The notes beneath the pieces are model-generated. The model saw only the letters and a list, made by a program, of their open reading frames with translations, did no database searches and was not told the origin of the DNA. Positions 3,310 through 61,714 of a DNA stretch of 64,000 bases are shown here, piece after piece (within the stretch, counting starts at the first letter, position 1; every line of letters begins with the position of its first letter). This DNA comes from an uncultured Sphaerobacteraceae bacterium (lineage in GTDB: Bacteria; Chloroflexota; Chloroflexia; Thermomicrobiales; UBA6265), in contig CAYJPA010000023.1 of the NCBI GenBank assembly GCA_964371945.1, positions 37 through 64,036 on the forward strand. Reading direction: 5' to 3'. A program made the translations under genes and the position numbers.

Positions 3310-5220
3310 TCAGTCAGACGCGATGCCAGCCGTGGTTGGTTGCGATCCGAAGACGATGTCCATCAGGCGGAGGGCGTTGGTCGAGTTCGCGATCCCCGGC
3401 CGCAGTTTGTAGTCGAAGCTCATGCCATTTGCGATCATCGTGTCTCTCAAATGCACCGCGTGAGCGATCGTCGAAAGCTCAGGCCCCTCGGCCAGCGTCA
3501 GGTCGTGCGTCGAGACCGCGCCGAGGGCGCCGGCATCGGCCAGATGCCGGATAACGCGTCTGGCAGCAATCTGGCGCTCGGCGGTGTTCGTGCCCTGAAG
3601 AATTTCGTCGAGGAGATAGAGGAGTGGTCGACCGTCGGGATCGGATTCGTTCGCGGCATCGACCACGGCCTTAAGTCGCTGCAGCTCCGCCATGAAGAAC
3701 GAGACGCCGCGCTCGAGCGAATCCTCGACTCGAACGCTCGTCCAGAGCCTAACCGGCGGCGTGATCATCCGCGCGGCGCACACTGGACCCCCAGCGCCGG
3801 CGAGCACGGTATTGACGCCGATCGCGCGCAACAAGGTGCTCTTGCCGGACATATTCGAGCCAGTGACCAGCAGGAACGATCCCGCCGGTCCGATCACGAC
3901 ATCATTTGTCACTCGTTCGGTGTCGGGAAGGAGCGGATGTCCGATTCCTTCCGCGCTTACCGTTGGCGCGTCCGGGAGAACGTCCGGCATCGTCCAGGTT
4001 GGTTGATCGTGCGCCAGTCCCGCCAGTGCGGTCAGCGCTTCGGTATCCCCAATCGTGCCGAGCCAATCGCGGACGTGATGACCCGCGAGGCGTTGCCACG
4101 CTTCGAGCCGTCCCAGCACATTGACGTCCCAGGCGAAGACCGACTGCAGCGGGAGATACAGCAAGGTTCCAGGCGGGACCGCAAAACCGGCATGCTTGCC
4201 AAGCGTGGACAGGAGCGTCGACGCCGAATGCCCGTCTGATTTCAAGCGACCCCGGTTTGTCTCGAGCAGGCTCGATTGCCCCGGCATTGCCTCGATGTGC
4301 GACAGCAATTGTGCAAACTGGCTGATCGACGGATAGTGCTCGGCCACAAGCGCGATCCGTACGCGGGCCTCCGACGCAATGACCTGAGTAAGCACGATGT
4401 TCGCGGCCGCGACGACGATGCAGACGATCGCAGGCAGCCAACCGATGCCAGCGGCGATCGCCGAAGCGAAGAAGAGCACGGGGCCAGCGATGCTAAGTGC
4501 CTGGATGAGTGGTTTGCCGCGCAACCATGGTTCGCGCTCACACCACTCGAGCAATGGTTCGGGATTCGGGCGGATTTCGCCAATTAGGCGTCCTCGAACA
4601 GCCAGCTCCTGGCGCCACTCGAGCTCCGGCGCCAACTCGGTGACCGCGAGCTGACGATTGCGAATCTCGGCCGGCCGGGCTGGAACCAACAACCAATCCT
4701 GCAGCCGCGTCGCGCCCATTGGGGTCTCGACAGATTCGAGTAGGTGAAACAGCGACGCGTGGCCGAACAGGTCGAGATCGTTGGCGAAGGCGTGACCAGT
4801 CGCTGCTTTGAAGTCGTGGCGGAGAGGCAGCTCATTCCAATCGCGATCGCCACGCAGGATTGATTCACGATTGATGTCATGAAACGCCACGGCTTGTTTC
4901 AGTTCCCGCCCGATTCGCCGGTGCTGCCCGATCAGCAGGAGAAAAGCAAGCGCCAACACAGCGGAGGCAATGTAAATCCAGAGCGAGCCAAACTGAAGCC
5001 CGAGGAGCAGGAGCGCGAGTGTCGCGAAGAATGCGGCCAGACGGATGTTGCCAAGGAGATTCCAGCGTCGTCGCAGCTCGTCACGTTCGGCGCCGTATCT
5101 GTTTCGGCGGACATCGTATGCGAGACGCCGTTGGGCGGTCTCCTCATCGAGTTCGATAACTGAGCCGATGCGTTCGATCAAGTTTTCAATCCTAAGCGTT
5201 GGGTGATTCACGGCCGCCAC
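3310..5220 (-). CDS. Membrane-anchored MutS-family ATPase (domain V, no mismatch-binding domain)
   Basis: Walker A TGSNMSGKSTLLR, SFFMAEL signature, Walker B LLDEILQGTNTAER, STHD; hydrophobic helices near residues 58-95 and 240-280. Confidence 0.9.
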   Translation of the reverse strand: MAAVNHPTLRIENLIERIGSVIELDEETAQRRLAYDVRRNRYGAERDELRRRWNLLGNIRLAAFFATLALLLLGLQFGSLWIYIASAVLALAFLLLIGQHRRIGRELKQAVAFHDINRESILRGDRDWNELPLRHDFKAATGHAFANDLDLFGHASLFHLLESVETPMGATRLQDWLLVPARPAEIRNRQLAVTELAPELEWRQELAVRGRLIGEIRPNPEPLLEWCEREPWLRGKPLIQALSIAGPVLFFASAIAAGIGWLPAIVCIVVAAANIVLTQVIASEARVRIALVAEHYPSISQFAQLLSHIEAMPGQSSLLETNRGRLKSDGHSASTLLSTLGKHAGFAVPPGTLLYLPLQSVFAWDVNVLGRLEAWQRLAGHHVRDWLGTIGDTEALTALAGLAHDQPTWTMPDVLPDAPTVSAEGIGHPLLPDTERVTNDVVIGPAGSFLLVTGSNMSGKSTLLRAIGVNTVLAGAGGPVCAARMITPPVRLWTSVRVEDSLERGVSFFMAELQRLKAVVDAANESDPDGRPLLYLLDEILQGTNTAERQIAARRVIRHLADAGALGAVSTHDLTLAEGPELSTIAHAVHLRDTMIANGMSFDYKLRPGIANSTNALRLMDIVFGSQPTTAGIASD

Positions 5221-5379
5221 TCAACACCGTCCGTGGCTTCCGCGGTTGAGGTGACGCCGCGTGGCGCGGTGGTCCTGTTCCTTATCGCTTCGACCACCAA
5301 GCGGGGACGATAGCCGCCGAGGCATGTTGTATCACCGGTCAACCAGGTTGCTCAGTTAGGTGGGAGTCAGAAATGAACG

Positions 5380-20228: not shown

Positions 20229-22541
20229 CTAAGTCGTGGGTGTAGATATCGGACTTCCCGTGGGTAATGGTTCCAATTCGACTTGGATGAATCGAAGGTA
20301 GTTGATGACATCCCAGATTTGCTCATCCGACAGCTGATTGCCAAAGGCCGGCATCGATGTCGTCGGTTTGCCGTCTTTGATCCAATTGAAAAACTCGGCA
20401 TCCCAGTGAGCCTTTGCATGAGCGGTTGTGAAATCGGCGGCAGGGGGTGAGAAGGTGTTCGCGAGTGGCCCATCGCCCTTGCCGGCCACACCGTGGCAAG
20501 AAATGCACATCGCCCGGAACGTGGACGCCCCGCGCTCGATCGAGGCGGAATCCGCGACGATTGGATTCACGGTGTTGAGCGGCATCCCAGGCGTCGCGAT
20601 CGTGATTCTGGCTTCTAATAGCAGCAGTGCGCCAAGCGCGATCGCGACGGCTCCAATTCCCAGGCTCTCCTTGCGCAGCGGTTTCTTGGCTGTCCACCAA
20701 GCGAGGGCGAACGCGGCGAAACCGGCCGTGATCATCAGCAAACCGACGATTCCCGTGGGTCGAAACGCCCACGCGACGCCCGGCTGACCACCGCTGCCTA
20801 CCGCCCTTATCGGCAGCGTGATCGTGGACGTCCATTGGAATCCGCCAATTTCGCGAACGATGACTTCGATACCCCAATCACCAGCGATGCTAACCTCGGA
20901 CCCGTGCGCTTCAAAGCCGTTTCCGGCCGCTCGCTCGAGCTTGACCTCCTTCTCACCGGCGTTCAGGTTCGGGATGGTCAGGCGGAGGACCGCTTCAGTG
21001 TCGACAGGAAGCGGATCGCCGCCTACATCGAGCCGGAAGTGGTTCGGGCCGACCTTGCCTGGAGCAAGCGAGAGCGTCGCGTTGTGGCCCTGCAGATCGA
21101 ATGCGACATCCATTTGATTCGCTTCCTGCGCCAACGATTCTCGTGCCGGAGCCTGACTCGTCAGGCGACCAACCACCAGCAGAATCGCGATCACAACGAC
21201 CACCTCTGATGTGACCGTCAGCGCAAATCGGCGACTCCATCGAATCGTCGATCGGTCATCGGACGCGCGCTTGATATGCCTAGAAACGACGAGCAGATTG
21301 ACTGCCGCAATCGCCAACACCGGAATGATCAGCAGCAGTTTGATCGTCAGTGAAGTGCCGTAGGCGGTTTCGCGCAACGCGCTCCAGTTACCAATTTGTA
21401 GCCAGCCGGCATACAGACCAGTGAAGAGGATCACGGCCCATGAGGTGAGTGAAACCGCGGAGAAGCGAGGAAGGGATCGAGCAAGCACGACACGCCGGCC
21501 AGCGGGTGTCAGGTCACGCAAAGTCGGGATCAGCGCCCCGACCAACACGATCAGCCCGCCGATCCAGACCGAGACCGCGAGGAGATGCGCCATATCGAAT
21601 GCAATGGCCACGGTGCGCCCGTTCGTTTGCGCGGATGCGTGCGAGACCAGCGCGAATGGCAACGCGGGCGACGCACAAACGCACAGCGTCAACAGCGTGA
21701 GAACTCGTTGGCGTCGGGGCCACCACCAGGCCGCACTCATGAGGACAACGGCCGAGGCAAGCAGAAGCACGACACGCAACAACCAGATGCGGCCGAGGCG
21801 TGTATCGGTCAGCGTCGTCGAAACAGCGGAGAAGAAACCCGAATCATCATTCGCGCCGTCAACCTGGACGTAAAGCGCAAGCAGCGAGCCGGCAAGCGCG
21901 ACTGCTACGCCCACATAGCCAATACCTCGCACGCGCCGGGTCAAGCGCGGACCTGCTTGCCAAGCAGGCGAGATCGCGGGACGCAACACGAGCAGCCAAA
22001 TCGAAAAGACCCCGACGACGACAGTGAGACCGATGTAGGAGACCCAACGCGCCAGGGCTTGCAGCCAGGCAGGCGGACCGGCGTTGCCTTCGAGCACCGG
22101 CGGGACAACGCTCGTGACATCGTCAACTGTGCCTACCGTGAACGGGATGTATCCCTGTGCGCGGTGGCCGTCCGCCGACGAGAGTGTTTGCCAAACAACT
22201 GAGAAGGTTCCGTTTGGCAGTCGATCGGGCAGCACCAAGCTCATCGTATTGCGATCTGACAGATCGAATTCGAGCTTCGTCGATTCAACTTGAACGCCAT
22301 CTTGATCGAACAACGCGGCCTTGGTGCTGGCGACCCTTTCCAAGGGCTCGGTGAAATGCATCGTCACCCGGATTGGAGTATCCGCCAGTACGGAATTTGC
22401 AGCCGGATCGCTCGAAGCCAGGAAGGCGTGTGCCTTGACCTGCGCCGGCGTCATCGCGGCCGAGGCGAGAAGCACAATGATCACAAGGTACGGCTGGGGG
22501 CCGAACCGTGGACGCTTCGCTTGATTCATGAAGATTCCCAT
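20229..22541 (-). CDS. CopC-CopD-YtkA-like-cytochrome c fusion protein
   Basis: AHAFLASSDP and SADGH (CopC), SHASA...HLLAVSVWIGGL (CopD), beta-domain FEAHGSEVSIAGDWGIEV (YtkA-like), C-terminal CISCHG with distal MPAF. Confidence 0.9.
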   Translation of the reverse strand: MGIFMNQAKRPRFGPQPYLVIIVLLASAAMTPAQVKAHAFLASSDPAANSVLADTPIRVTMHFTEPLERVASTKAALFDQDGVQVESTKLEFDLSDRNTMSLVLPDRLPNGTFSVVWQTLSSADGHRAQGYIPFTVGTVDDVTSVVPPVLEGNAGPPAWLQALARWVSYIGLTVVVGVFSIWLLVLRPAISPAWQAGPRLTRRVRGIGYVGVAVALAGSLLALYVQVDGANDDSGFFSAVSTTLTDTRLGRIWLLRVVLLLASAVVLMSAAWWWPRRQRVLTLLTLCVCASPALPFALVSHASAQTNGRTVAIAFDMAHLLAVSVWIGGLIVLVGALIPTLRDLTPAGRRVVLARSLPRFSAVSLTSWAVILFTGLYAGWLQIGNWSALRETAYGTSLTIKLLLIIPVLAIAAVNLLVVSRHIKRASDDRSTIRWSRRFALTVTSEVVVVIAILLVVGRLTSQAPARESLAQEANQMDVAFDLQGHNATLSLAPGKVGPNHFRLDVGGDPLPVDTEAVLRLTIPNLNAGEKEVKLERAAGNGFEAHGSEVSIAGDWGIEVIVREIGGFQWTSTITLPIRAVGSGGQPGVAWAFRPTGIVGLLMITAGFAAFALAWWTAKKPLRKESLGIGAVAIALGALLLLEARITIATPGMPLNTVNPIVADSASIERGASTFRAMCISCHGVAGKGDGPLANTFSPPAADFTTAHAKAHWDAEFFNWIKDGKPTTSMPAFGNQLSDEQIWDVINYLRFIQVELEPLPTGSPISTPTT

Positions 22542-22600
22542 CGGTGACCACCGTTCGCGCCGGAGTGACTTGCCGCACGCACTTCGATGGTCAGTTAGCA

Positions 22601-23290
22601 CTAACCACGGAATTTCGGATTCTTCGGCCGTACCGCACGCCAGAAAAAGTAAATCACCACTGCCGCGATCAAACCGGCGCCAACGCTCAGTCCGAATGCC
22701 TGGGAATCGAAGTTGCTCTCCTCCGCTGCAGGAGCGGTTGTAGGCGAACCGACGATCTCGACCGTAGCCAGTGGGTCACTCCCCGTGGTCGGGGCTTCAT
22801 TTGCAGTCGTTTCCGTATTCGCGGGAGAAACACCCGGAGTCGCGACCGGCGTGCCGTTGCCGACAGTGAAGAGGTAGCCACCTTGAGCTTCATCGCCATC
22901 TTCGGTAGAGACTGAATGCCATTGCACCGTGTAGGCACCGGGACCCAAGCCCGCACGCAATGAGACGGTCACGTGCTTTCGCTCCGGGTCGTTGAGATCG
23001 ACCTTCGCATCGCCGAGGTCGACCTGGATACCGCCTGGACCGATGACGAGGATCGTCGTGCCCTCGGTCTTGGCTTCCTCGCTGAACCAGATTTCGACGA
23101 TCGCTGGGGCGGTGGCGACCACTCCATTGATCGGCGGCGAGGTCCGTTCCGGTTCGGCGTGTGCAAGCCCGGGGGAGGGCGTGCCAAACAACGCCATCGT
23201 CGCGACAACGATTCCCAACCATAGATAGAGGGGAGGGCGTTGCCGCCCTCCCGATATCACTGATTTTGAGCCTTCGTTAGTCACCCGCAC
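22601..23290 (-). CDS. CopC family protein with C-terminal TM anchor
   Basis: AHAEPERTSP...IWFSE...GAYTVQWHSVSTEDGD; Thr/Pro linker and C-terminal TM. Confidence 0.88.
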   Translation of the reverse strand: MRVTNEGSKSVISGGRQRPPLYLWLGIVVATMALFGTPSPGLAHAEPERTSPPINGVVATAPAIVEIWFSEEAKTEGTTILVIGPGGIQVDLGDAKVDLNDPERKHVTVSLRAGLGPGAYTVQWHSVSTEDGDEAQGGYLFTVGNGTPVATPGVSPANTETTANEAPTTGSDPLATVEIVGSPTTAPAAEESNFDSQAFGLSVGAGLIAAVVIYFFWRAVRPKNPKFRG

Positions 23291-23951
23291 CTACTCGCGT
23301 TACTGCCAATCGTGGCGTCGCGCTCTGACGATTCCGTCGCTGAATCAAGAATAGACCGGCTCCGCCGGCGGCGATCGCCGCGAAAATGCCGCCGGCCGAG
23401 GTCCAATTGAAACCGCTTTCGCCGGAGACTGTCCCGAACACGGGCGCGGAATTCGCGGCCGTTGCTTGCGGGAACTGAATTATCGCCTGGTCCACGACCG
23501 AACTGAAGCCTTCCGGAGACGACGTAAATGTTTCATCAATCGCCGTTTCGCCGATTGTGCCCCAAATGTGGAAGGTGTAGTCGCCCGCCGCGGTCGGAAC
23601 GACCCAGGCATCATACGCGCCCGGCGATCGCCAGCGTGGCTCCAAGGTCAGGGTCATCTTTTGATCGCCATAGATGATCTCTGCCTGAAGGGTTTCCTCG
23701 AGACCCTCAACAGGGGCGCCGACCGGTTCACCGCCATCCGCGGACGGCGTTGCAATTGAGTTGTCGCTGATGCGCAAATCGAGACCATTCAGGAATCCGG
23801 TGTAGGCCGGTTCCGAGCTGAATCCTACGACGACCGAATAGCGCCCATCCGCCAATTCTCGATGCTCGTGCGCAGATGCAATCATGGGCATCAGCAGCGC
23901 GATTGCCGCCACAGCCAGTGAAACCCAAAGAATCCGGTTGAATTGAGTCAT
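23277..23951 (-). CDS. Secreted membrane-anchored protein with N-terminal HEH, probable Cu binder
   Basis: Signal peptide ending ASA then HEH; beta-rich body; C-terminal TM followed by RRNR; stop overlaps the CopC start. Confidence 0.75.
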   Translation of the reverse strand: MTQFNRILWVSLAVAAIALLMPMIASAHEHRELADGRYSVVVGFSSEPAYTGFLNGLDLRISDNSIATPSADGGEPVGAPVEGLEETLQAEIIYGDQKMTLTLEPRWRSPGAYDAWVVPTAAGDYTFHIWGTIGETAIDETFTSSPEGFSSVVDQAIIQFPQATAANSAPVFGTVSGESGFNWTSAGGIFAAIAAGGAGLFLIQRRNRQSATPRLAVTRVGAGD

Positions 23952-23963
23952 CCGTCAAACCTC

Positions 23964-24521
23964 CTATGCCGGAACTGATCGCAGCCCGGCACTCCAATTG
24001 CCTGATTCGTGCCTGTCAAACCTGGACAAGACTTCTGGTGGAGGAGGTTCCGGGGCGAACAGACAGCTCGCAAACGAAGGCCTCCAGATCGAATATCTCC
24101 ACGAAGCAATGTAGGGAGAGGCCATGGTGGCCGCGATCAAACCGACAACGATCAGCATACTCACAATCCCGCCGGGAGCCGTAGCGGGCGTGACTGTCGG
24201 GACGTCCGGATATCGCTCTGTCGCGGGCAACGCCGCATCAACTGATCCGATTGATGGAGCATGACTCAATTGGGAATGCTGAGCGCTCGAGTGTTCGTGC
24301 GCACGTTCCGACGCTGCTCCAGTCTCTTCGTGGTGATGGCCGAAAGCCGATTCGGGACCGCTCAGCCAGAACTGAAAGAAACTATGGGGGTGAGCGAGCT
24401 CTCCGCCGCCCTTGAAGATCGATGGCATGAGCGCGACGCATAAGGCGGCCAGAAGCAGGATTGGTCGATCGAATCCACGCCTTCGGAACGAACCGCTCGA
24501 ATTGGTTGCAGCTCGCGTCAT
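23964..24521 (-). CDS. His-rich membrane hypothetical protein
   Basis: N-terminal TM, HPH...GHHHEE...HEH...H, second TM, PEPPPP; first gene of the Cu cluster. Confidence 0.55.
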   Translation of the reverse strand: MTRAATNSSGSFRRRGFDRPILLLAALCVALMPSIFKGGGELAHPHSFFQFWLSGPESAFGHHHEETGAASERAHEHSSAQHSQLSHAPSIGSVDAALPATERYPDVPTVTPATAPGGIVSMLIVVGLIAATMASPYIASWRYSIWRPSFASCLFAPEPPPPEVLSRFDRHESGNWSAGLRSVPA

Positions 24522-40562: not shown

Positions 40563-41255
40563 CTACGCGGGCTCCTCGCCGACGTGGACTGCGGCCGCCA
40601 GCGGCCGGCCAACGATGTGCTCGACGCCGTCGACCTCAATTCGAATCGGTCCCTCGAACGGCAGTCGTTCCAGCACAGCGACGGTGGCGCCCGGGAAGAG
40701 TCCGAGTCCGCCCAGGTAGCGGAGCTGCTCGGGATCGCGATCGGAAACGCGCGTTACCAGTTTGCGGTCCCCGGGCTCGAGATCGAGCAAACGAACCACG
40801 GAGACGTGATCGATCGTGCCTTCGCGGCTCGGAATCGGATCGCCATGGGGATCGTGCGTCGGGAAGCCGAGCGCGGAATCCATCCTTTCCTCCAACTCTT
40901 CGGAGAGATGGTGCTCCAGGCGTTCCGCTTCGTCGTGGACTTGATCCCAGGGCATACCGAGCGTCTCTGACAAGTAGAGCTCGAGCAGGCGATGGTGGCG
41001 CAACACTTCGAGCGCGATCTTGGTTCCGGCTTCGGTTAGCTCAACGCCGCGATACCGGGAATGACGCAAAAGGCGGAGCTCGTGGAGTCGTTTGACCATG
41101 TTTGTGACCGACGGGCCGGTCACTCCCAGTTCATCCGCCAATCGTTGGGTTGTCACCTGCGCGCCGCTATCCCGAAGACGGTAGACCGCTTTCAGATAAT
41201 CCTCCATCGCATGCGTCACCCTCGGTTGATCCGAGGGCTGAGATTCACTTGGCAT
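40563..41255 (-). CDS. DtxR/MntR family metal-dependent repressor with FeoA domain
   Basis: MEDYLKAVY, RHHRLLE, HDEAERLEH, DPHGDPIP, C-terminal FeoA/SH3-like domain. Confidence 0.95.
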   Translation of the reverse strand: MPSESQPSDQPRVTHAMEDYLKAVYRLRDSGAQVTTQRLADELGVTGPSVTNMVKRLHELRLLRHSRYRGVELTEAGTKIALEVLRHHRLLELYLSETLGMPWDQVHDEAERLEHHLSEELEERMDSALGFPTHDPHGDPIPSREGTIDHVSVVRLLDLEPGDRKLVTRVSDRDPEQLRYLGGLGLFPGATVAVLERLPFEGPIRIEVDGVEHIVGRPLAAAVHVGEEPA

Positions 41256-41550
41256 TTGACTGCGTTGCGGCACGATTTCACTGACCTGGGCAATTGCCCG
41301 CTGTTTGCTTCAGCCTCGCTGATTGGCTCGACCGTCGAAATTCGTGGCCGATTGGAGCACGTTGGACGAATCGTCATTGCCAGCGACAAGCCCTGTCAAG
41401 CAACGTCAGGTTCGGTTTTGCCCGATTATGTCTAAACACCTGAGCTTTTGAACGCTTCGCACGTTGAGCTGGATCGCCTGATCCGCGACAATTCAGCGAT
41501 TTTCGATCGCGAAGGCACTGTCTTCGATAGGCTTTGGAGCACCGTACCCG

Positions 41551-48280: not shown

Positions 48281-49213
48281 ATGCCGGAGATTCCAGTTAT
48301 CGAGGGTTTGTTCCGTTTCGTGGCTTTCGCACCTGATATCGGATCGCGGGCGATCGCGACCATGTCCCAGATAACAAGCTCCCGATTCTGATGCTCCATG
48401 GTGGCCCCGGCGCCTGCCACGACTATCTCGAGAGTCTTCAACCGTTTGCGGCAACGGGCAGGCCGGTGATCTTTACGACCACCTCGTGTGCGGAAATTCG
48501 GATCGGCCAGACGACCCATTGATGTGGACCGTCGATCTCTTTCTCGACGAGCTTCGGGTCGTGCGGCAAACGCTCGGACTGGACCGGATTCACCTGTTGG
48601 GACAGTCCTGGGGCGGCCTGCTGGCGATGGAGTATGCGCTGACCCGGCAGGACGGTGGGGTCAGCTTGACGATCGCGTCGTCACCCGCGAGTATGCTGCT
48701 CTGGGTTGAAGAAGCGAATCGACTTCGCGCCGAACTTCCCCCGATGTGCAGGCGACGTTGCTCAAGCATAAAGCGGACGGCTCAACCGACGATCCCGCAT
48801 ATGAGCAAGCGATGGCGGTTTTTTACGCGCGTCACGTCTGCCGAGTCGTGCCAAATCCTGACTACGTTACGAACTCATTCGCAAAGCTCGGTAAGCAGGT
48901 GTACGAAACCATGAACGGCCCAAGCGAGTTTCATGTGATTGGAGCACTCTAAGCGTGGCACATCCGGTGTCGGCTTGGCGAAATCGAGATTCCGAGCCTG
49001 ACGACCTCCGGGCGGTATGACGAGTGCACGCCAATGCAGGCCGAGATCGTCAAGAATGGCATCCCAGGTTGTGAATGGGTGCTGTTCGACGAGAGCTCAC
49101 ATATGCCGCATGTCGAGGAGCAAGAGCGCTACCTGGATGTCCTTGATGATTTTCTCAATCGAATTGAAGAGCGAGTGAAACATGGGCAACAGTCGCCGGC
49201 TCGGCTTCTCTAG
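48281..49213 (+). pseudogene. Proline iminopeptidase (alpha/beta hydrolase) pseudogene
   Basis: Joined frames give EGFVPFRGFRT*YRI...LHGGPGACHDYL / CGNSD...LGQSWGG / VQATL...NGPSEF..IGAL*AW...GRYDE...SSHMPHVEE; at least three frameshifts and two in-frame stops. Confidence 0.85.
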
Positions 49214-50213
49214 CGTCAGCCGCCGGGAGCTGCTGACCACGGGCGGCTTGCTCGCTGTTGTTGGCTTGGTCGTCGCCGGCGACAGCCGCGGGCGAGTCAA
49301 GAGCGCCGGTGCAGAGTGGAGCATTGGCGTTCCTATACCTCGGGCACGCTCCGAAATGCCGGCAACGGTGATCGACGGCAAGATCTACGTCGTGGGCGGT
49401 TTCTACGACGGTTCCTGGGCCGATTGCTTTGATCCGTTGACGCAGAGCTGGACCCAGCTCCCCAACCTACCCGCCGCGGCTCACCACCCTGGGGTCGCGG
49501 CAATCGACGGCGTCCTGTACGTGGCTGGTGGCTTCTCTCCCGACGGTCACCATGCCCTCGGACACCTTTGGTCTCATGCGCCCGGAACACGCATCTGGCA
49601 CAAATTGGCGTCACTGCCGGAACCGAAGGGCGCGTTAGGACTCGTCGGAATGGATGGCGGGTTGTTTGCCGTTGGCGGCGCTCGAGAGCACCTGGGGGGA
49701 CCCGCCAGCGGCGATCTCCTCCGCTACGATGTCCTGGCGAATTCATGGCAGGAGCTCCGGCCGATGCCCACGGAGCGCGAACATCTTGCGGTGGCCGCCA
49801 ACGGGGGCAAGATTTTCGCGATCGGCGGCCGGGCGAACGGCGATGAAAGCACCACATTCGGCGGGGCCAACGAGCAATACGATCCGGCAACAGATACTTG
49901 GACCACATTGGCTCGGTTGCCGGTCGGCCGGAGTGGTCTGGCCGGGGTCGCGGTTGAACATAGCGTGGTCGTCATAGGAGGCGAACGAGGCCGCAGTCTC
50001 TACAACAATGTCAATCGGTTTAATATCGAAACGGGTGAATGGGACACGCTTTCGCATCTGGGAACTGCTCGGCATGGGCTGGCGGCCGCATATGTCGATG
50101 GAACGATATACGCGATTGCCGGAAGCACATCGCCCGGTGATATCGAGAACGTTGACATCGTTGAAACGCTCACCTTGGACTCCATCACGGCGCCGTCGCC
50201 CGGAGCCGGATAA
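49182..50213 (+). CDS. Tat-exported Kelch-repeat beta-propeller protein
   Basis: SRRELL Tat signal; six GG...W Kelch repeats (IYVVGG, LYVAGG, LFAVGG, IFAIGG, VVVIGG, IYAIAG). Confidence 0.9.
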   Translation: MGNSRRLGFSSVSRRELLTTGGLLAVVGLVVAGDSRGRVKSAGAEWSIGVPIPRARSEMPATVIDGKIYVVGGFYDGSWADCFDPLTQSWTQLPNLPAAAHHPGVAAIDGVLYVAGGFSPDGHHALGHLWSHAPGTRIWHKLASLPEPKGALGLVGMDGGLFAVGGAREHLGGPASGDLLRYDVLANSWQELRPMPTEREHLAVAANGGKIFAIGGRANGDESTTFGGANEQYDPATDTWTTLARLPVGRSGLAGVAVEHSVVVIGGERGRSLYNNVNRFNIETGEWDTLSHLGTARHGLAAAYVDGTIYAIAGSTSPGDIENVDIVETLTLDSITAPSPGAG

Positions 50214-50819: not shown

Positions 50820-50842
50820 TAGCCTAGGTTTGGCTAGGCTAT
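50820..50842 (+). promoter_or_regulatory. Palindromic operator candidate upstream of MarR gene
   Basis: TAGCCTAG-N6-CTAGGCTA perfect inverted repeat about 70 bp before the ATG. Confidence 0.45.
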
Positions 50843-50910
50843 GTAGCCAGTATCGAGCGGGTCCGTTAACTTGTGCGGCTCGTCAGCGTAGTGGCAACCC
50901 GGAGGCCCTC

Positions 50911-51390
50911 ATGACACGTGCAGACTCGGCAAGCGCGGTGCATCGACCGGCAGAACTAACCCTCAGGCTCATTCCGCGGCTCACACGGTGGGCGCAAACG
51001 CGGGTTGTGCATGAGGAATTGGGGGCGGAGCTCAGTCTTCGTCAACTGTCGGCCCTTCAGATGATTGAAGATGAGACGACGACGCTCGGAGACGTTGCGC
51101 GCCGCCTCATGGTGACACCGGCAGTAGTAACTGGTTTGATCGACCGGCTGGAGAAGCGCGGCTATGTTCGCCGCCTCAGCAGCTCGGGAGACCGGCGTCG
51201 CGTCAATCTCACATTGACGCCGGAAGGCCGCGTGGCTGCCGAGAAGGCGGAGCAGCGGCTCATTGACGAAGTCGGCGCCAAGATGGCGAACTTCTCAGCC
51301 GATGAGCTCAAGACGCTCGAAAAGGGCCTCGCCCTGCTCGATCGCGTGCTTCAAGATCTCGAAGGCGAGCGGTCGACCAGTCGTCGCTAG
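50911..51390 (+). CDS. MarR family transcriptional regulator
   Basis: LSLRQLSAL, AVVTGLIDRLEKRGYVRR...DRRRVNLTLTPEG. Confidence 0.93.
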   Translation: MTRADSASAVHRPAELTLRLIPRLTRWAQTRVVHEELGAELSLRQLSALQMIEDETTTLGDVARRLMVTPAVVTGLIDRLEKRGYVRRLSSSGDRRRVNLTLTPEGRVAAEKAEQRLIDEVGAKMANFSADELKTLEKGLALLDRVLQDLEGERSTSRR

Positions 51391-55775: not shown

Positions 55776-56762
55776 CTAATCCTTCCCAAGGATCGAGGCA
55801 ATCTTCAACTTTGCCGAAATGGGCTGATTGATGCCCCATTTGGGCGGGAAAAAGGGCGTTAGCGGTTCGGGGTTGGGGTTGAATTTGGATTTGATGCGGA
55901 GGCGGTTGTTTGTTAGGTCGGGGAAGGCGACGCGGGCGTACTTGTCCACTTCGCAAAAGAGGTTTTGACGGTCGATGGCGTGCAAGCGGCGGCCCCAGAG
56001 GGTTTGGAACTCAAGACCGAGCCGCTCGAGCTCGGTTTCCTGATGCTCGACCATCCAGTGGATGACATCCTGCATCGACATTGAGCCGGTGCTGACGAAG
56101 CACTTTTCGATACCGCGGCGGGCGCCGGGACCGGGCATCGTGAAATCGTTCTCGCCGAAGTCGGTGAGCTCGCTGTAGTTGATGTCGATCGCGAGCTGAT
56201 AGGCCATGAACGGGCCGATCATCGGGTAATCAATCAGCGCCAGGTAGACCTCCTCGAACGTGCGTGCCGTTGCAATCTCCCGCGCGAGCCCGTTACGCAT
56301 CATCGACTCGACAAGAGCCAGGTGGTTCGTGTGCTTTCGGCGATGGCCGAAGGCATCGCTTGAGGCGAGGATGAATGCACCGGTGTAAATAGCGTCCCCT
56401 CGGGACAATGCCTCCTCGAGTGCTCGATCGTAAGCATCGAAGTCGAACGACCGGACCGTGATCGGACCATGCGCTGACTCGAGCAGCTGCCAGGTCGCCG
56501 GTTTGCTGAAGAACCGGAAGAGCATGATCCAGAGCAGCGTGTCGTCTGCTGAGTAAGCGTCCTGATAAACGACGTGACGGATCAGGAACTGCGAAACGCG
56601 ATCGCTCGCCCGATAGGCATTGCAGAACCTGTAGGTCCGAAGAATGGGTTCATCGGTCCAGGGTGATGGCTCGCCATGCTGGCGGCGGCAGAAGATCGCC
56701 TGACGTTCAGCGGCGAGTTGCCAATAGGTGTCGAGCAGATCATGCCGGGGCTTCAATTCCAT
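55776..56762 (-). CDS. aGPT-PPlase clade 1 / 5-hmdU DNA kinase helical-domain family protein (putative DNA base hypermodification)
   Basis: PWTDEPILRTYRFCNAYRASDRVSQ, LFRFF, HhH-like IGPFMAYQLAIDINYS, GPGARRG, QNLFCEVDKY, FFPPKW; no P-loop. Confidence 0.85.
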   Translation of the reverse strand: MELKPRHDLLDTYWQLAAERQAIFCRRQHGEPSPWTDEPILRTYRFCNAYRASDRVSQFLIRHVVYQDAYSADDTLLWIMLFRFFSKPATWQLLESAHGPITVRSFDFDAYDRALEEALSRGDAIYTGAFILASSDAFGHRRKHTNHLALVESMMRNGLAREIATARTFEEVYLALIDYPMIGPFMAYQLAIDINYSELTDFGENDFTMPGPGARRGIEKCFVSTGSMSMQDVIHWMVEHQETELERLGLEFQTLWGRRLHAIDRQNLFCEVDKYARVAFPDLTNNRLRIKSKFNPNPEPLTPFFPPKWGINQPISAKLKIASILGKD

Positions 56763-56847: not shown

Positions 56848-57732
56848 TTATGCGCTCAGGTAATCGAGCACGATTTGGTTGAACTCGGCGGGCTGTTCGA
56901 ACATGGCAAAGTGGCCGGTTCCCGGCATGAGGTTCAGTTCCGCGCCGGGGATAAGCAGCGCCATGAGCTTTGTTTGATTGAGGTCGATGGCTTCTTCCGT
57001 TTCTCCGTCAAGGATGAGGAAGGGCGTCGTGATCGCCTTGAGCTGTTCCTCGGTGTAGTTTGGCAGCGTGGCCCACATCACCGAAATGTTGTTCAGGAAC
57101 TCGTCCCATCGTTCCGGAGCCGGCGAAAGCGCCAGGTAGTCCTCGTATGCGGCATTGATGTAGGCGTTGAAGTATTCGTTCGTGCCGACATCGAGCCGCA
57201 CGCCGGTTGGGTCGAAATTGGCGCCGTAAGCAACGACCTTGTTCAATCGCTCGGGGTTGTTGATCGCGATCTCGAGGCCGATGATCCCGCCGTCGCTCCA
57301 GCCAACAATGCTCGCCTTCTCGATTGCGAGATGATCGAGCAACCCGAGCACATCGGACGCCATCAATGCGTAGGTGATCGGCTTGTCGTCGAACGATGAA
57401 CGGCCGTGACCGCGGCTATCCATTACGATCAACTGGTAGTGCTCGGCCAGCACTGGAATCTGATTGGCGAAGTACTTGCCGTTGCCCAGGCCGCCGTGCA
57501 ACAGGAGCAGCGGCTCTCCGGCGCCATAAATTTCGTAATAAATGCTGGCCCCGTTGATCTCGACCGTTTGGCCCTCGGCTTCCTCCCAGGTTGCAGGCAG
57601 GAGCGATTGCGGAGCGACCATTGCCACCGGGGTGGCGGAGTCTTGAGCGGCCGCGCCCGACGGCCCAAACATTGATGACGCGACAAGCGAAGACAACACC
57701 GCGGCGGCGAGGAGTGCATTGCGCAACTTCAT
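56848..57732 (-). CDS. Secreted alpha/beta hydrolase
   Basis: Signal peptide MKLRNALL, LLHGGLG, DSRGHGRS, nucleophile GWSDGG, GTGHF. Confidence 0.92.
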   Translation of the reverse strand: MKLRNALLAAAVLSSLVASSMFGPSGAAAQDSATPVAMVAPQSLLPATWEEAEGQTVEINGASIYYEIYGAGEPLLLLHGGLGNGKYFANQIPVLAEHYQLIVMDSRGHGRSSFDDKPITYALMASDVLGLLDHLAIEKASIVGWSDGGIIGLEIAINNPERLNKVVAYGANFDPTGVRLDVGTNEYFNAYINAAYEDYLALSPAPERWDEFLNNISVMWATLPNYTEEQLKAITTPFLILDGETEEAIDLNQTKLMALLIPGAELNLMPGTGHFAMFEQPAEFNQIVLDYLSA

Positions 57733-57871: not shown

Positions 57872-57914
57872 TTGACAGTAGCCGTCAATACTTCGTAGAT
57901 TAGCTGAGGCTAAT
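57872..57914 (+). promoter_or_regulatory. Sigma70-like promoter with overlapping DtxR-like palindrome
   Basis: TTGACA (57872-77), N18, TAGATT (57896-901); ATTAGC-TGAG-GCTAAT (57899-914) overlaps the -10. Confidence 0.6.
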
Positions 57915-57984
57915 ACACGTGGTCGCCGGTTCTGGCGGTCACGGCGCATCAATGTTGCACAAAAACACCGGAGGTATTTCGAAA

Positions 57985-59058
57985 ATGAGGCAATTTGTGC
58001 AATCGTTGGTGACCCGGCGCGGTTTGTTGAAAGCGGGAATCGGCAGCGCAGGTGCGGTCGGGGCAGGCGGGCTTGCGATCGCGGCTGGCGACCTTCAGCT
58101 CGTCGTGCGGGCGCAGGAGGCAACACCGACACCGAGCCACGACATGAATGGCATGGGCTCTGATCCCATGGTAATGCCGGGCGTGGTCGGCGAAGTCGAT
58201 CACGTGTTCAATGGATTCGATCCGAGCGAGATTCTTACCGACTTCGACGCGGGCGAGATCACCGCGTTACCGAGCGGGCAAGTTCAGCACGAGTATTGGA
58301 TTACCGCGGTCAACAAGGAGATCGAGCTCGTTCCGGGGATCAGATATGCCGCCTGGACGTACAACGGCCGGGTACCAGGGCCCACGATCCGGGTAACCGA
58401 GGGCAATCACGTCAAGATCAACTTTACCAATGGCGGCGATCACCACCACAGCATGCACTTTCATGGCATTCACCCGGCATCGATGGACGGGGTGTTCGAT
58501 CCAGCGTCCGGGCAGATTCCTCCCGGCGCGTCCTTTGTGTACGAGTTCGACGCCGAGCCAGTGGGATTGCACCTTTACCATTGCCACACCGCTCCCCTGG
58601 CGACACACATCGCACACGGGCTATACGGCACCTTCATCGTCGATCCGAAAGACGGCTGGCGGGCGGTCGACCGCGAATACATGATGATCATGGCCGGATT
58701 CGATATCGATTTCGACGGCGAAAACGATCTGTACACGGTCAACACGATACCGTTCCACTATGACCACACGAAGCACCCGATCGTTTTCAACGTTGGAGAA
58801 ACGGTTCGCGTCTTTCTAGTCAATGTTCTCGAGTACGACCTCATCAATTCGTTCCACTTGCACGCGAATTTCTTCAACTATTTCCCAACCGGCACGAGCC
58901 GGACTCCAAGCGAGTTCACGGACACGATTGCGTTGATGCAGGGTCAGCGAGGCATTCTCGAATTCACCTACAAGTATCCTGGGCTCTATATGTTCCACGC
59001 TCACAAGACCGAGTTCGCTGAATTGGGCTGGACGGGCGTCTTCGAGGTGAAGGAGTAG
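57985..59058 (+). CDS. Tat-exported two-domain multicopper oxidase (type C, T1 Cu in domain 1)
   Basis: TRRGLL Tat signal; HSMHFHG and HCH...H..GL in domain 1; FHLHAN and FHAH (no Cys) in domain 2. Confidence 0.9.
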   Translation: MRQFVQSLVTRRGLLKAGIGSAGAVGAGGLAIAAGDLQLVVRAQEATPTPSHDMNGMGSDPMVMPGVVGEVDHVFNGFDPSEILTDFDAGEITALPSGQVQHEYWITAVNKEIELVPGIRYAAWTYNGRVPGPTIRVTEGNHVKINFTNGGDHHHSMHFHGIHPASMDGVFDPASGQIPPGASFVYEFDAEPVGLHLYHCHTAPLATHIAHGLYGTFIVDPKDGWRAVDREYMMIMAGFDIDFDGENDLYTVNTIPFHYDHTKHPIVFNVGETVRVFLVNVLEYDLINSFHLHANFFNYFPTGTSRTPSEFTDTIALMQGQRGILEFTYKYPGLYMFHAHKTEFAELGWTGVFEVKE

Positions 59059-59060
59059 CC

Positions 59061-60260
59061 ATGTCAACCACACCCGCTCCGACCACCAAACCCGGCGGCA
59101 TCGGAACTCGGTCGCTGCTGATGTTTGCAATTCCGATCGTGTTGCTCGCCGGAGTGATCGCTCTTTTCGCACTTACCGACGGCGCGGGCCTCAATGTCGA
59201 GCCGGCGGCGCCAATTGAAACAGTCACCTTTCAGCGGACGGTGCTCAATCCGGGCGAGATCGTGCTCCATGTCCGGAACACCAGCCAGGAAGAAGTGACG
59301 ATCGCCCAGCTCAACATCAATGATGCGATCTGGCCGTTCACAATCTCGAAGTCGCCAATTCCTCGTCTTTCGGAAGCGACCGTGAAGTTGAGCTATCCAT
59401 GGGTAGAAGCCGAGGCCTATTCGATCACGCTGTTCTCTTCGAACTCAGTCGGATTCGCGACCGCGATCGATGTCGCCACCGAAACCCCGGGTGTAACGAG
59501 TAGTGCCTTCTGGAAATTCACATTGGTCGGGTTCTACGTCGGGATCATCCCAATCGTGCTGGGCGTGTTGTGGCTGCCGGTGCTGCGGCAGATCGGCTCC
59601 AGGACAATGCTGTTCCTGATGGCGGGCACGGTTGGTCTTTTGCTCTACCTGGGGGTCGACGCGACGGTCGAGGCGCTCGAACAAGCGGGCGAATTGGGCG
59701 GACCGTTCCAGGGAACAGGCATCGTTGCGATCGGGATCGTTGCCACCATTCTGCTGCTCGATGCGATCGGGCGTCGTCCGACCGGCTCCGCCGGCACCGG
59801 GGCAAGCGCGAGGATGTCGTTTGCCTGGTTGATCGCGACCGGTATCGGCTTGCACAACCTGGGTGAGGGATTGGCGATCGGCGCGGCCTACGCGGTCGGC
59901 GCGGCATCATTGGGAACCTTTCTGGTGATCGGCTTCATCATTCAAAACGTGACCGAGGGGTTGGGAATCGTCATCCCGATCGCGAAAGATCGTCCAAGTC
60001 TCCGAAACCTCGCATTGCTGAGTCTTGCCGGCGGCGCGCCGGCCATCTTCGGAGCCTGGATCGGCGGTTTTATCACCGCGCCGGCACTTTCCGTGCTCTT
60101 CTTGGCCATCGGCGCGGGCGCCGTTTTCCAGGTCGCGTATGCGATCGGCAAAAAGCTCGTGTGGGGTACCGAAGGATCGAAAGCAATGCCCTACACGGCG
60201 TTTGCCGGGGTTACCGCGGGTATGCTCGCGCTGTATGTCACCGGCGTGCTCATCAAATAG
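59061..60260 (+). CDS. ZIP family metal transporter with N-terminal extracytoplasmic domain
   Basis: GIGLHNLGEGLAIG (TM4) and QNVTEG (TM5); soluble beta-domain between the first TM and the core. Confidence 0.9.
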   Translation: MSTTPAPTTKPGGIGTRSLLMFAIPIVLLAGVIALFALTDGAGLNVEPAAPIETVTFQRTVLNPGEIVLHVRNTSQEEVTIAQLNINDAIWPFTISKSPIPRLSEATVKLSYPWVEAEAYSITLFSSNSVGFATAIDVATETPGVTSSAFWKFTLVGFYVGIIPIVLGVLWLPVLRQIGSRTMLFLMAGTVGLLLYLGVDATVEALEQAGELGGPFQGTGIVAIGIVATILLLDAIGRRPTGSAGTGASARMSFAWLIATGIGLHNLGEGLAIGAAYAVGAASLGTFLVIGFIIQNVTEGLGIVIPIAKDRPSLRNLALLSLAGGAPAIFGAWIGGFITAPALSVLFLAIGAGAVFQVAYAIGKKLVWGTEGSKAMPYTAFAGVTAGMLALYVTGVLIK

Positions 60261-60338
60261 CAAGTGATCTCACGTGCCTCGTCATCTGACATCGTAGATG
60301 ACGAAGCACTGGTTCTTGGAAAGTCCCCTTTCTCCACT

Positions 60339-60761
60339 ATGGATTCGGAATCGAGATCTGCACTTTGGACGCGGCGCAATGTGCTGAGAGCACTGGGTGG
60401 CCTCGTCACACTTTTGGCAGCTGGAACGTTGACTGCGCGCGGGGGAGCGTCGGCCAAGGGCAAGACCGTCAAGATGGCCAAAGAAATGACGTTCGAGCCA
60501 GCGTTGCTCACGATCAAGGTAGGCGATTCGGTCACCTGGACAAACGACAACGATATGGTTCACACGGCAACCGCGGACCCAAGCAAAGTCCGCGACGCGA
60601 CGCTGATCGAGATTCCGGCGGGTGCGCAACCCTGGGACTCGGGGTACGTCGGCCGCGGGCAATCGTGGAAATACACGTTTATGACCCCAGGAACGTATCG
60701 CTATGTTTGTGTGCCGCATGTGATCGTGGGCATGACCGGGCAAATTACGGTCGAGCCATAA
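60339..60761 (+). CDS. Tat-exported plastocyanin/azurin-like cupredoxin
   Basis: TRRNVL Tat signal; HTAT and YVCVPHVIVGM type-1 Cu ligands. Confidence 0.9.
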   Translation: MDSESRSALWTRRNVLRALGGLVTLLAAGTLTARGGASAKGKTVKMAKEMTFEPALLTIKVGDSVTWTNDNDMVHTATADPSKVRDATLIEIPAGAQPWDSGYVGRGQSWKYTFMTPGTYRYVCVPHVIVGMTGQITVEP

Positions 60762-60769
60762 CAACAGAA

Positions 60770-61714
60770 TCAGGCGAAGGTTTTGCGGTAATCGATCGAT
60801 TCGCTGGTGACCACGAAGCCAAGGCGCTCGTAGAGACGGTTGGCTCCGGTCGGGCTGGCCGCGTCGACCTTGAGCGAAACTTCCGCGCCGCCGTAGTCTC
60901 TGACCTGCGCGATCGTGTGGCGTAGCAGCCATTCCGCGAGCCCACGTTTGCGGTGATCGCGATGCGTTCCGATCAGATCGATATGCCAGTCGACGACTCC
61001 AGTGGAGTCAACTCTCTTGTCGACGATGCTGAATGCGGCGAGTGCTCCGTTCCCCGTTTCGATCACCAGGTCGAATTCGGGCAGATAGTCGTCGGCCGAG
61101 AGCGATTGCACTCGATCCTCGCGCACGATCGGATGAAAGTCGTAGTGATCCTGAAACGCGTTGACGTAGAGATCCAGCCAGGCATCGATCTCCGACTCGC
61201 CTTTGAACTGACGCAACCGATATCCGGCAAGTGGCAGCGGTTTCGACGCTGCTTCTGTGATCGGACGCTTCATCATGTGGAATACGCGATCGATCGTATA
61301 GCCGCGCCGTTCCAACAAGGCAATCCGTCTATCGGATCCTCTCTTCGCTGACGCTTCGATCTGGAACCCGCTGCCGAACCGCTCCGCCGCGGCTCGTTCT
61401 GCCCAGGTGAGCACGTCGCCGGCAAGTTCAGTGGTCTCCTCGTCCGGGTGAATATGCAGGCGCAGATATGCGATCGGGTCTCTTGAATGCTCCTCTGAAA
61501 TGCGACTATCGCCCAGCACTACCAGCCGGCCGTCGCGTTCCCAGAGTTACAGATCCCGGCTCCAACCTGGCCGCGATTGAAGGTAAGCCATGCGAAGCCG
61601 CTCGCGAGATGCTGGAAAGAAGCTCGGTTCGTGGGTTTCGATCGCGAGCCTCAACTCGACGACCGCTTCGATGTCGGACTCACCATTGAAGGAACGGAGT
61701 GTGTACTTGCTCAC
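60770..61714 (-). pseudogene. Tandem-domain GNAT acetyltransferase with internal TAA (61547-61549)
   Basis: GTG 61714 MSKYTLRSF...WSRDL*LWERDGRLVVLG... is continuous in frame with ORF 60770..61519 (HRDHRKRGLA, NRLYERLGF). Confidence 0.7.

Follow-up and report, generated by a model that had tools for sequence, protein, structure and literature searches.

A widespread bacterial multicopper oxidase-ZIP permease pair and its cupredoxin-bearing, putatively MntR-controlled variant in a Sphaerobacteraceae bacterium

A gene pair encoding the multicopper oxidase (MCO) MCO1 and a permease of the ZIP family was noted in archaeal ammonia oxidizers by Kerou et al., 2016 (as cited in PMC7785015). In the latter account MCO1 is a two-domain enzyme with type 1 (T1), type 2 (T2) and type 3 (T3) copper and a leucine at the axial position, its gene adjoins that of the ZIP permease, and an uptake model is proposed in which the oxidase acts before the permease (PMC7785015). 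The MCO1 lineage has been described as restricted to Thaumarchaeota (PMC7785015, Reyes et al., 2020). Here we analyze a locus with the same two partners in a stretch of 64,000 nucleotides (the window) from an uncultured Sphaerobacteraceae bacterium of the Chloroflexota (contig CAYJPA010000023.1, positions 37 to 64,036). Compared by described features, the window locus differs from the archaeal pair in being bacterial, in having a conserved MntR-type operator and in carrying an extra gene for a cupredoxin. We regard it as a cupredoxin-bearing bacterial variant of a known, uncharacterized oxidase-ZIP pairing.

The same concept, an extracytoplasmic oxidase joined to a permease and induced by starvation, is embodied in Fet3p-Ftr1p and in the bacterial FTR/Fet3-like uptake systems, and the original prediction for this locus, which was made by a model from the letters of the window, drew that parallel. 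The likeness stands as one of function and does not extend to the proteins themselves: Fet3p is a three-domain, membrane-anchored enzyme and Ftr1 carries REXXE motifs, whereas the window encodes a two-domain, NirK-like MCO and a ZIP permease, with no homology at either. Hand-over of an oxidized trivalent product, as in Fet3-Ftr1, is unlikely here, as ZIPs carry divalent ions; a Fet3-type hand-over misfits a ZIP unless the reaction is the oxidation of Cu+ to Cu2+, as in the published archaeal hypothesis (PMC7785015). For the regulation of the locus, the nearest described systems are the MntR, TroR and ScaR repressors, with which the regulator in the window shares its domain architecture, Asp/Glu ligands, an AT-rich interrupted palindrome and a TroA-type ABC importer as an apparent second target. 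Our literature search found no MCO-ZIP-cupredoxin operon in any described MntR regulon, and no paper on a bacterial MCO-ZIP module, its operator or its function, or on an MntR regulon that includes an MCO. ZIPs have been studied from bacteria to humans, and we know of none that works with a dedicated redox enzyme.

The genes of the locus and the promoter proposed for them are as follows.

57985-59058, plus strand: MCO gene, an open reading frame of 357 amino acids with an ATG start 8 nucleotides past GGAGG
59061-60260, plus strand: ZIP gene, an open reading frame of 399 amino acids
60339-60761, plus strand: cupredoxin gene, an open reading frame of 140 amino acids, ATG start preferred
57872-57901, plus strand: sigma-70-like promoter, TTGACA-18 nt-TAGATT, 10 of 12 matches, 84 nucleotides ahead of the MCO start

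The three co-oriented genes that the original prediction had named, with gaps of 2 bp and 78 bp, are all present as open reading frames, and the Tat signals it had assigned to two of the products can be read as twin-arginine motifs in the MCO (VTRRGLLKAG) and the cupredoxin (WTRRNVLRAL). The ZIP ATG follows the MCO stop codon by 2 bp, with an AAGGAG that overlaps the end of the MCO gene, and this spacing suggests translational coupling. The 78 bp between ZIP and cupredoxin presuppose a start at ATG 60339; a longer GTG frame from 60264 is possible, and we set the start at the ATG because homologs align only from about that point. A scan of the operon region revealed no terminator-like site between the three genes, which are bordered on the left by a divergent alpha/beta-hydrolase gene (minus strand, start at 57732) and on the right by a convergent GNAT acetyltransferase gene ending at 60770. 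This arrangement is best explained by a single three-gene operon, predicted to cover 57872-60761.

The core of this operon is a two-gene MCO-ZIP module that is widespread in bacteria and pairs the oxidase with ZIPs of a dedicated subfamily. Relatives of the ZIP, sought in a collection holding one genome per prokaryotic species, were encoded in at least 593 stretches, and the best 80 loci, all from other species, were kept for comparison. In about 77 of these 80 the MCO gene is directly upstream of the ZIP gene on the same strand, and the 3 exceptions are contigs that begin inside or just before the ZIP gene. The loci come from at least 8 phyla or major groups, including Chloroflexota, Gemmatimonadota, Acidobacteriota, Bacillota (Paenibacillus, Cohnella, Fictibacillus), NC10/Methylomirabilota, Armatimonadota, Verrucomicrobiota, Latescibacterota and Rubrobacter, and the gap between the two genes is 0-150 nucleotides across distant phyla. 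Clustering at 90% leaves more than 7400 relatives of the ZIP, and identities between phyla are often 60-70%. The view that an archaeal system has here a rare equivalent among bacteria thus has to be given up, with at least 593 bacterial stretches encoding a ZIP relative. The expectation that all three genes would be conserved together held for the MCO and the ZIP and failed for the cupredoxin, which is present in none of the 80 loci and was found beside the pair only in five related genomes and, divergently oriented, in one more. Since the MCO and ZIP genes adjoin in at least several hundred bacterial species, the two proteins very likely cooperate.

A homolog of the DtxR family of metal-dependent regulators adjoins about half of the 80 loci, nearly always co-directional, either before the MCO gene or after the ZIP gene. 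Other frequent neighbors, named from example sequences and not by family search, are FeoB (11 loci), an ABC ATPase (10), a CDF exporter (9) and an ArsR-family regulator (9). In the window itself, a palindrome is located at the proposed promoter.

57899-57914, no strand assigned: predicted DtxR/MntR operator, ATTAGC-TGAG-GCTAAT, with the core TTAG-N6-CTAA, overlapping the -10 hexamer and the likely transcription start

As a whole, the inverted repeat spans 57894-57919, with 11-nucleotide arms of 82% complementarity. The palindrome is unique in the window at up to 3 mismatches (0.08 expected), and TTAGC-N4-GCTAA is unique in the 5.42-Mb genome. A match to the DtxR/IdeR box TTAGGTTAGGCTAA at 12 of 14 positions had been claimed for it, and recomputation gave the same figure. 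The 19-bp IdeR/DtxR box contains TTAG-N6-CTAA twice, at a 5-bp offset, so the pattern in the window is consistent with a site bound by one dimer of a family member.

Conservation of the palindrome in orthologous promoters had been put forward as a check on the prediction, and it is found across phyla. For this comparison, 74 loci from other species were usable, and upstream DNA was taken as that before the MCO gene, or before a co-directional regulator gene preceding it. In 21.5 kb of DNA ahead of the operons TTAG-N6-CTAA is found 47 times, versus 18 times in 815 kb elsewhere, an approximately 100-fold enrichment from which we conclude that the operator is conserved. Exact copies are present in 42 of the 74 loci, with the consensus AATTTAGG-N4-CCTAAATT, and lie 20-150 nucleotides ahead of the start codon. 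A weight matrix recognizes a site in 48 of the 74, including 20 of the 33 that have no adjoining regulator gene; this second test is circular in part, since the matrix had been built from these very sites, whereas the pattern test, defined from the window palindrome alone, is not. The operator also bears on the promoter. The TTGACA-N18-TAGATT site of the original prediction is present and is the only promoter-like site in the region, but shuffled sequence holds a mean of 1.4 such sites and the hexamers by themselves are no better than chance; the promoter is credible because it is positioned 84 nucleotides before the MCO start and is overlapped by a conserved operator. An Rfam search of the whole window, leader included, detected no riboswitch or other known RNA.

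A regulator that could act at this operator is encoded in the window.

40563-41273, minus strand: DtxR-family regulator of the MntR type, a candidate repressor, with Fe_dep_repress, Fe_dep_repr_C and FeoA domains

The Pfam matches confirm the DtxR-type regulator that had been proposed for the window, with the winged-helix, dimerization/metal and SH3/FeoA parts all present, and it is the single DtxR-family gene in the genome, which is 97% complete. Its best NCBIfam match is to the Thermus-type MntR (2e-67; 227 bits, below the 350-bit cut-off), and its close PDB matches include ScaR and SloR. At the positions of DtxR M10 and C102 it has D25 and E117, and among the regulators that adjoin the module Asp occupies the M10 position in 35 of 35 and Glu or Asp the C102 position in 33 of 35; the mapping onto the DtxR and MntR reference sequences rests on conserved motifs. 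These ligands point to sensing of Mn rather than Fe. A weight-matrix scan of the genome placed the best operator-like site elsewhere at position 24380 of contig C19 (AGATTAGTTGTGACTAAATC, score 20.9), about 40 bp upstream of genes for a binding protein of the ZnuA/TroA/MntC family and an ABC ATPase (C19, approximately 21500-24400). This ABC importer probably belongs to the regulon as its second member, and its presence behind the site serves as an independent check on coherence, in that the predicted regulon then contains a second metal importer. Other high-scoring sites, on contigs C64, C28 and C25, are inside genes or between convergent genes and were not counted. The original claim of metal repression through a DtxR-family operator is supported by the conserved operator and the sole DtxR-family gene, and it is highly probable, to judge from these sequence features, that an MntR-type repressor regulates the operon.

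The description of the oxidase as a two-domain MCO with the T1 Cys only in domain 1 and an axial Leu is borne out by its Pfam domains (Cu-oxidase_3 and Cu-oxidase_2, with no third domain in the 357 residues) and by an alignment of 89 homologs that adjoin a ZIP. The T1 ligands H155, C200 and H208 and the axial L213 are all within domain 1, and domain 2 has no Cys that is conserved among the homologs. All eight His of the trinuclear center are present (H158, H160, H199, H201, H291, H293, H338 and H340). The copper ligands are invariant or nearly so across the 89 proteins, 87 of which have Leu at the axial position. By these features the protein is a type C two-domain MCO with T1 in domain 1, and it is predicted to be a Tat-exported four-copper oxidase of high potential, given the axial Leu.

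Its matches in the PDB include the type C structures 3GDC (E 2e-108) and 7RAB (E 4e-101; also 7RAC), which span the catalytic core and have the same copper ligands throughout; 3GDC aligns over residues 76-356, and the solved homologs are about 60% identical. We take 3GDC, deposited as "Multicopper oxidase", to come from Arthrobacter sp. FB24. A literature search for 3GDC and 7RAB found no functional paper on either, and work on Rhodococcus has dealt with homologs of 3GDC simply as laccase-like oxidases (PMC13613843). Assignment to NirK was considered and rejected: the TIGR02376 score is 102.9 bits against a cut-off of 296.3, and the protein has the eight trinuclear His, not a three-His T2 site. 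The mature N-terminal tail, which runs from the signal peptide to the catalytic core, is rich in His and Met (SHDMNGMGSDPMVMPG), and in 49 distinct homologs Met and His together make up 14.6% of the 30 residues ahead of the conserved core. Tails of this kind typify proteins that handle copper. A His/Met-rich linker from Tat signal to core, at 57985-58200 in the window, is present in most of the ZIP-adjoining MCOs (homologs in loci L002-L100).

The permease is, by its sequence, a divergent member of the ZIP family. Its score against Pfam PF02535 is 24.8 bits, below the gathering threshold of 35.1; most of its homologs carry a precomputed match to this family, and its core aligns to BbZIP of Bordetella bronchiseptica (PDB 5tsa; E 3e-10, residues 152-370). 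The HNxxEG motif of transmembrane helix (TM) 4 and the (H/Q)(D/N)xxEG motif of TM5 that characterize ZIP transporters are present and aligned with those of BbZIP, and the transport-site motifs H265-N266-L-G-E269-G and Q295-N296-V-T-E299-G are invariant among the homologs. The H/E/Q/E ligands of the BbZIP M1 site are thus kept. The M2 site looks degraded, with Asn296 at what we take to be the D208 position of BbZIP and no acidic residue at the presumed E240 position. The eight-helix core of BbZIP aligns, and eight core helices are also counted in a full-length model from a 16-sequence alignment, which was used for the helix count only because its pLDDT is 55.

Unlike BbZIP, the window ZIP has an extra N-terminal TM helix (residues 16-38) followed by an all-beta domain of about 100 residues (approximately residues 40-150).

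59178-59510, plus strand: extracytoplasmic beta-sandwich of the ZIP, from an AlphaFold 2 (AF2) model of the domain alone (pLDDT 91.5, 90-sequence alignment)

The N-terminus of the ZIP core faces outward, as established for BbZIP. Because of this, and because the segment before the extra helix holds Lys and Arg while the one after it is acidic, the beta-domain should lie outside the cytoplasm; the additional extracytoplasmic domain of the original prediction therefore stands, now as a TM helix and a modeled beta-sandwich. The closest solved folds are the Ig-like sandwiches of archaeal FlaG, FlaF and pilins (TM-score 0.6-0.65), which have no metal sites. A metal-binding fold was considered and set aside, since matches to CopC are weak (TM-score 0.34-0.39) and those to the archaeal proteins better. 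A Pfam search with the ectodomain matched no family, and few potential metal ligands are conserved in the homolog alignment. We think it probable that the ectodomain serves in docking or gating rather than in metal binding. Its profile matches 1158 cluster representatives among 1.84 billion; most of the 150 matches listed place it at about residues 30-165 of proteins of up to about 430 amino acids, and in 8 of 89 loci inspected directly it belongs to a ZIP partnered with a type C MCO. One database protein of 6901 amino acids (P0218), presumably a surface protein, contains 17 domains matching the ectodomain profile, and the fold thus also exists in repeated form in a protein of very large size.

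The third product is, on its sequence, a Tat-exported plastocyanin-like type 1 blue copper protein, matching PF00127 with 60.1 bits (cut-off 21.2) and plastocyanin 1pcs with an E value of 1e-11, and having a complete ligand set in H75, C124, H127 and M132 (His ... Cys-x2-His-x4-Met). Its distribution is narrow. In a set of 61 genomes from the same family and order, of which 25 have the ZIP, a cupredoxin 45-54% identical directly follows the ZIP gene in five (G015, G005, G007, G019 and G049), and in G015 a regulator 63% identical to that of the window comes after MCO, ZIP and cupredoxin. Another relative, G031, has MCO and ZIP without the cupredoxin. The database contains 7 homologs of the cupredoxin at E of 1e-10 or better; the two that were looked up, about 50% identical, do not adjoin a ZIP. 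As the gene is found after the ZIP only in related genomes, it appears to be a subclade-specific, family-level addition under the same control; it is outside the conserved core, so that three components are not the rule for this system. In G008 (locus L100, contig C74, approximately 5100-5250) the three genes are wired differently: the cupredoxin gene is divergent from MCO-ZIP and one operator (AAATTAGTTATGGCTAAACT, score 24) is located in the shared intergenic region. Particular to the window are the 17 kb between regulator and operon, the single operator over the -10 and the cupredoxin gene in the operon.

The explanation we favor overall, with somewhat better than even confidence, is an MntR-controlled operon in which the ZIP imports Mn2+, or Mn2+ and Fe2+, with the oxidase beside it. 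When metal is plentiful, the sole DtxR/MntR regulator would most probably bind the palindrome over the -10 and block transcription, and metal starvation would turn the operon on. The ZIP would then import a divalent metal, most likely Mn2+ and possibly both Mn2+ and Fe2+; import is the expected direction given the biology of ZIPs and the importer in the same predicted regulon. The oxidase would sit beside the ZIP, perhaps docked on the beta-sandwich, and could use O2 on redox-active Fe2+ or Cu+ at the transporter entrance, either to exclude these ions or to condition the substrate. We slightly favor exclusion, in which the oxidase would clear Fe2+ and Cu+ from the entrance of a promiscuous permease and thereby let Mn2+ in. 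In this lineage the cupredoxin may have been added as an electron carrier to the T1 site of the oxidase, a plausible role given that T1 is in domain 1 as in NirK and that pseudoazurin and NirK offer an analogy. We infer the geometry of repression, the direction of transport, the substrate, the docking and the roles of oxidase and cupredoxin alike, and any single role for the oxidase is put forward tentatively. A stronger version, in which MCO and ZIP, with the cupredoxin where present, form a physical, O2-dependent import machine whose docked oxidase gates or selects entry to the permease while the cupredoxin shuttles electrons, is doubtful. If true, it would give prokaryotes a widespread equivalent of Fet3-Ftr1, with a ZIP as scaffold and a manganese sensor in control.

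Several observations weigh against this explanation. Operon and regulator gene are 17 kb apart, 26 of the 74 loci have no operator recognizable by the weight matrix, and the window operator, with a score of 15.0, is below every site of the training set. The C19 binding protein has a three-His-plus-Asp site of the TroA/AztC type, with the His of an HDAF motif at the third ligand position, where the Zn/TroA and Mn types separate, and Zn is thus kept in play. In a classical Mn regulon one would expect Nramp as a member, and the Nramp gene of this genome, considered as a co-regulated Mn importer, was rejected as no operator precedes it. Nor is there an association between ZIP and Nramp in the 61 relatives (both in 14, ZIP only in 11, Nramp only in 23, neither in 13), and hence no sign of redundancy between them. 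Three Fur-family genes in the genome might provide Fe and Zn control, which speaks against a simple Mn reading. No obvious cluster of metal ligands is seen in the beta-sandwich, and its contact with the MCO is a supposition. Because of the HDAF His, the Nramp gene without a site and the three Fur-family genes, we give Mn2+ about an even chance of being the main cargo, and combined Mn/Fe, Zn and Cu share what is left.

A further set of observations runs toward copper: the His/Met tail of the MCO, the two copper proteins among the three products of the operon, and the modestly raised expression of the archaeal MCO1-ZIP pair when Cu is limiting (PMC7785015). On this account the MCO would oxidize Cu+ to Cu2+ and the ZIP would import Cu2+, a divalent ion compatible with ZIP chemistry, and the copper could be loaded into the MCO and the cupredoxin before their export. 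In copper-limited Nitrososphaera viennensis the log2 fold change was 0.81 for MCO1 and 1.33 for the adjacent permease (PMC7785015), and a tail rich in His and Met recurs in many homologs of the window MCO. The archaeal induction is weak, however, the same study reports conflicting patterns for Nitrosopumilus maritimus (PMC7785015), and the likeness of the window locus to the archaeal pair is one of described features. The regulation fits poorly as well, since the linked regulator is of the DtxR/MntR type with Mn-type O/N ligands, and is not a copper sensor, and the other target predicted for it is a TroA/MntC-type ABC importer. We therefore consider copper acquisition unlikely.

Iron is the next candidate. 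The MCO could be a ferroxidase, either forming with the ZIP an Fe pathway like Fet3-Ftr1 or lowering periplasmic Fe2+ during Mn starvation. The axial Leu at T1 is shared with Fet3p, FeoB is among the neighbors of the module (the 11 of 80 loci given above), and some DtxR-family regulators with Asp/Glu ligands, in the ScaR/SloR group that is among the close PDB matches of the window regulator, sense both Fe and Mn. The product of a ferroxidase, Fe3+, would not be a substrate for a permease of divalent cations, though, and the regulator is without the Met/Cys ligands of the iron-sensing DtxR/IdeR proteins, while the three Fur-family regulators are available for iron control. A role in iron handling is thus quite unlikely.

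The adjacency of the genes might instead be regulatory only, three independent metal-homeostasis proteins having come under one promoter, with the MCO perhaps a general laccase-like oxidase. A physical interaction between MCO and ZIP is, after all, supposed. Three database proteins that seemed to fuse an MCO to the N-terminal domain of a ZIP contain out-of-frame stretches and are frameshifted gene calls, and the laccase-like treatment of 3GDC homologs in Rhodococcus (PMC13613843) would suit such a role. What makes this reading very unlikely is the near-universal order of MCO then ZIP, with gaps of 0-150 nucleotides in distant phyla, which is far tighter than shared regulation needs, together with the placement of the beta-sandwich, among the 150 best matches, mostly at the N-terminus of proteins of ZIP length or shorter and, in 8 of 89 loci, in a ZIP partnered with an MCO. 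Finally, efflux with an oxidative trap, in which the ZIP would release reduced metal for oxidation by the MCO in the periplasm and the regulator would activate at high metal, has precedents in the activation of efflux genes by MntR in Bacillus subtilis and in the detoxifying role of MCOs such as CueO, but is scarcely credible for an operator that lies over the -10 here and 20-150 nucleotides before the start codon elsewhere, as expected of a repressor, for a regulator whose other predicted target is an importer, and for a family whose characterized members move metal into the cytoplasm.

The conserved operator and the Mn-type regulator supply a concrete condition under which to test the cooperation of oxidase and permease, namely metal starvation, and the cupredoxin variant supplies a candidate electron partner for reconstitution. 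The outcome would also bear on the MCO1-ZIP pair of the archaeal ammonia oxidizers, which has been read as a copper system; the manganese-type regulator of the bacterial module points to a different or broader role.

Two other genes in the window deserve mention. A 328-amino acid protein encoded at 55776-56762 on the minus strand matches Pfam PF18723 (5-hmdU DNA kinase, helical domain) over nearly its full length (E 5e-101); this family is known from phage DNA hypermodification pathways, and the gene stands alone here amid ordinary chromosomal genes for an FAD oxidoreductase, a helicase-like protein and an alpha/beta hydrolase. At 49182-50213 on the plus strand, a bacterial Kelch-repeat beta-propeller protein of 343 amino acids is encoded beside a MarR-family regulator (50830-51390, plus strand).

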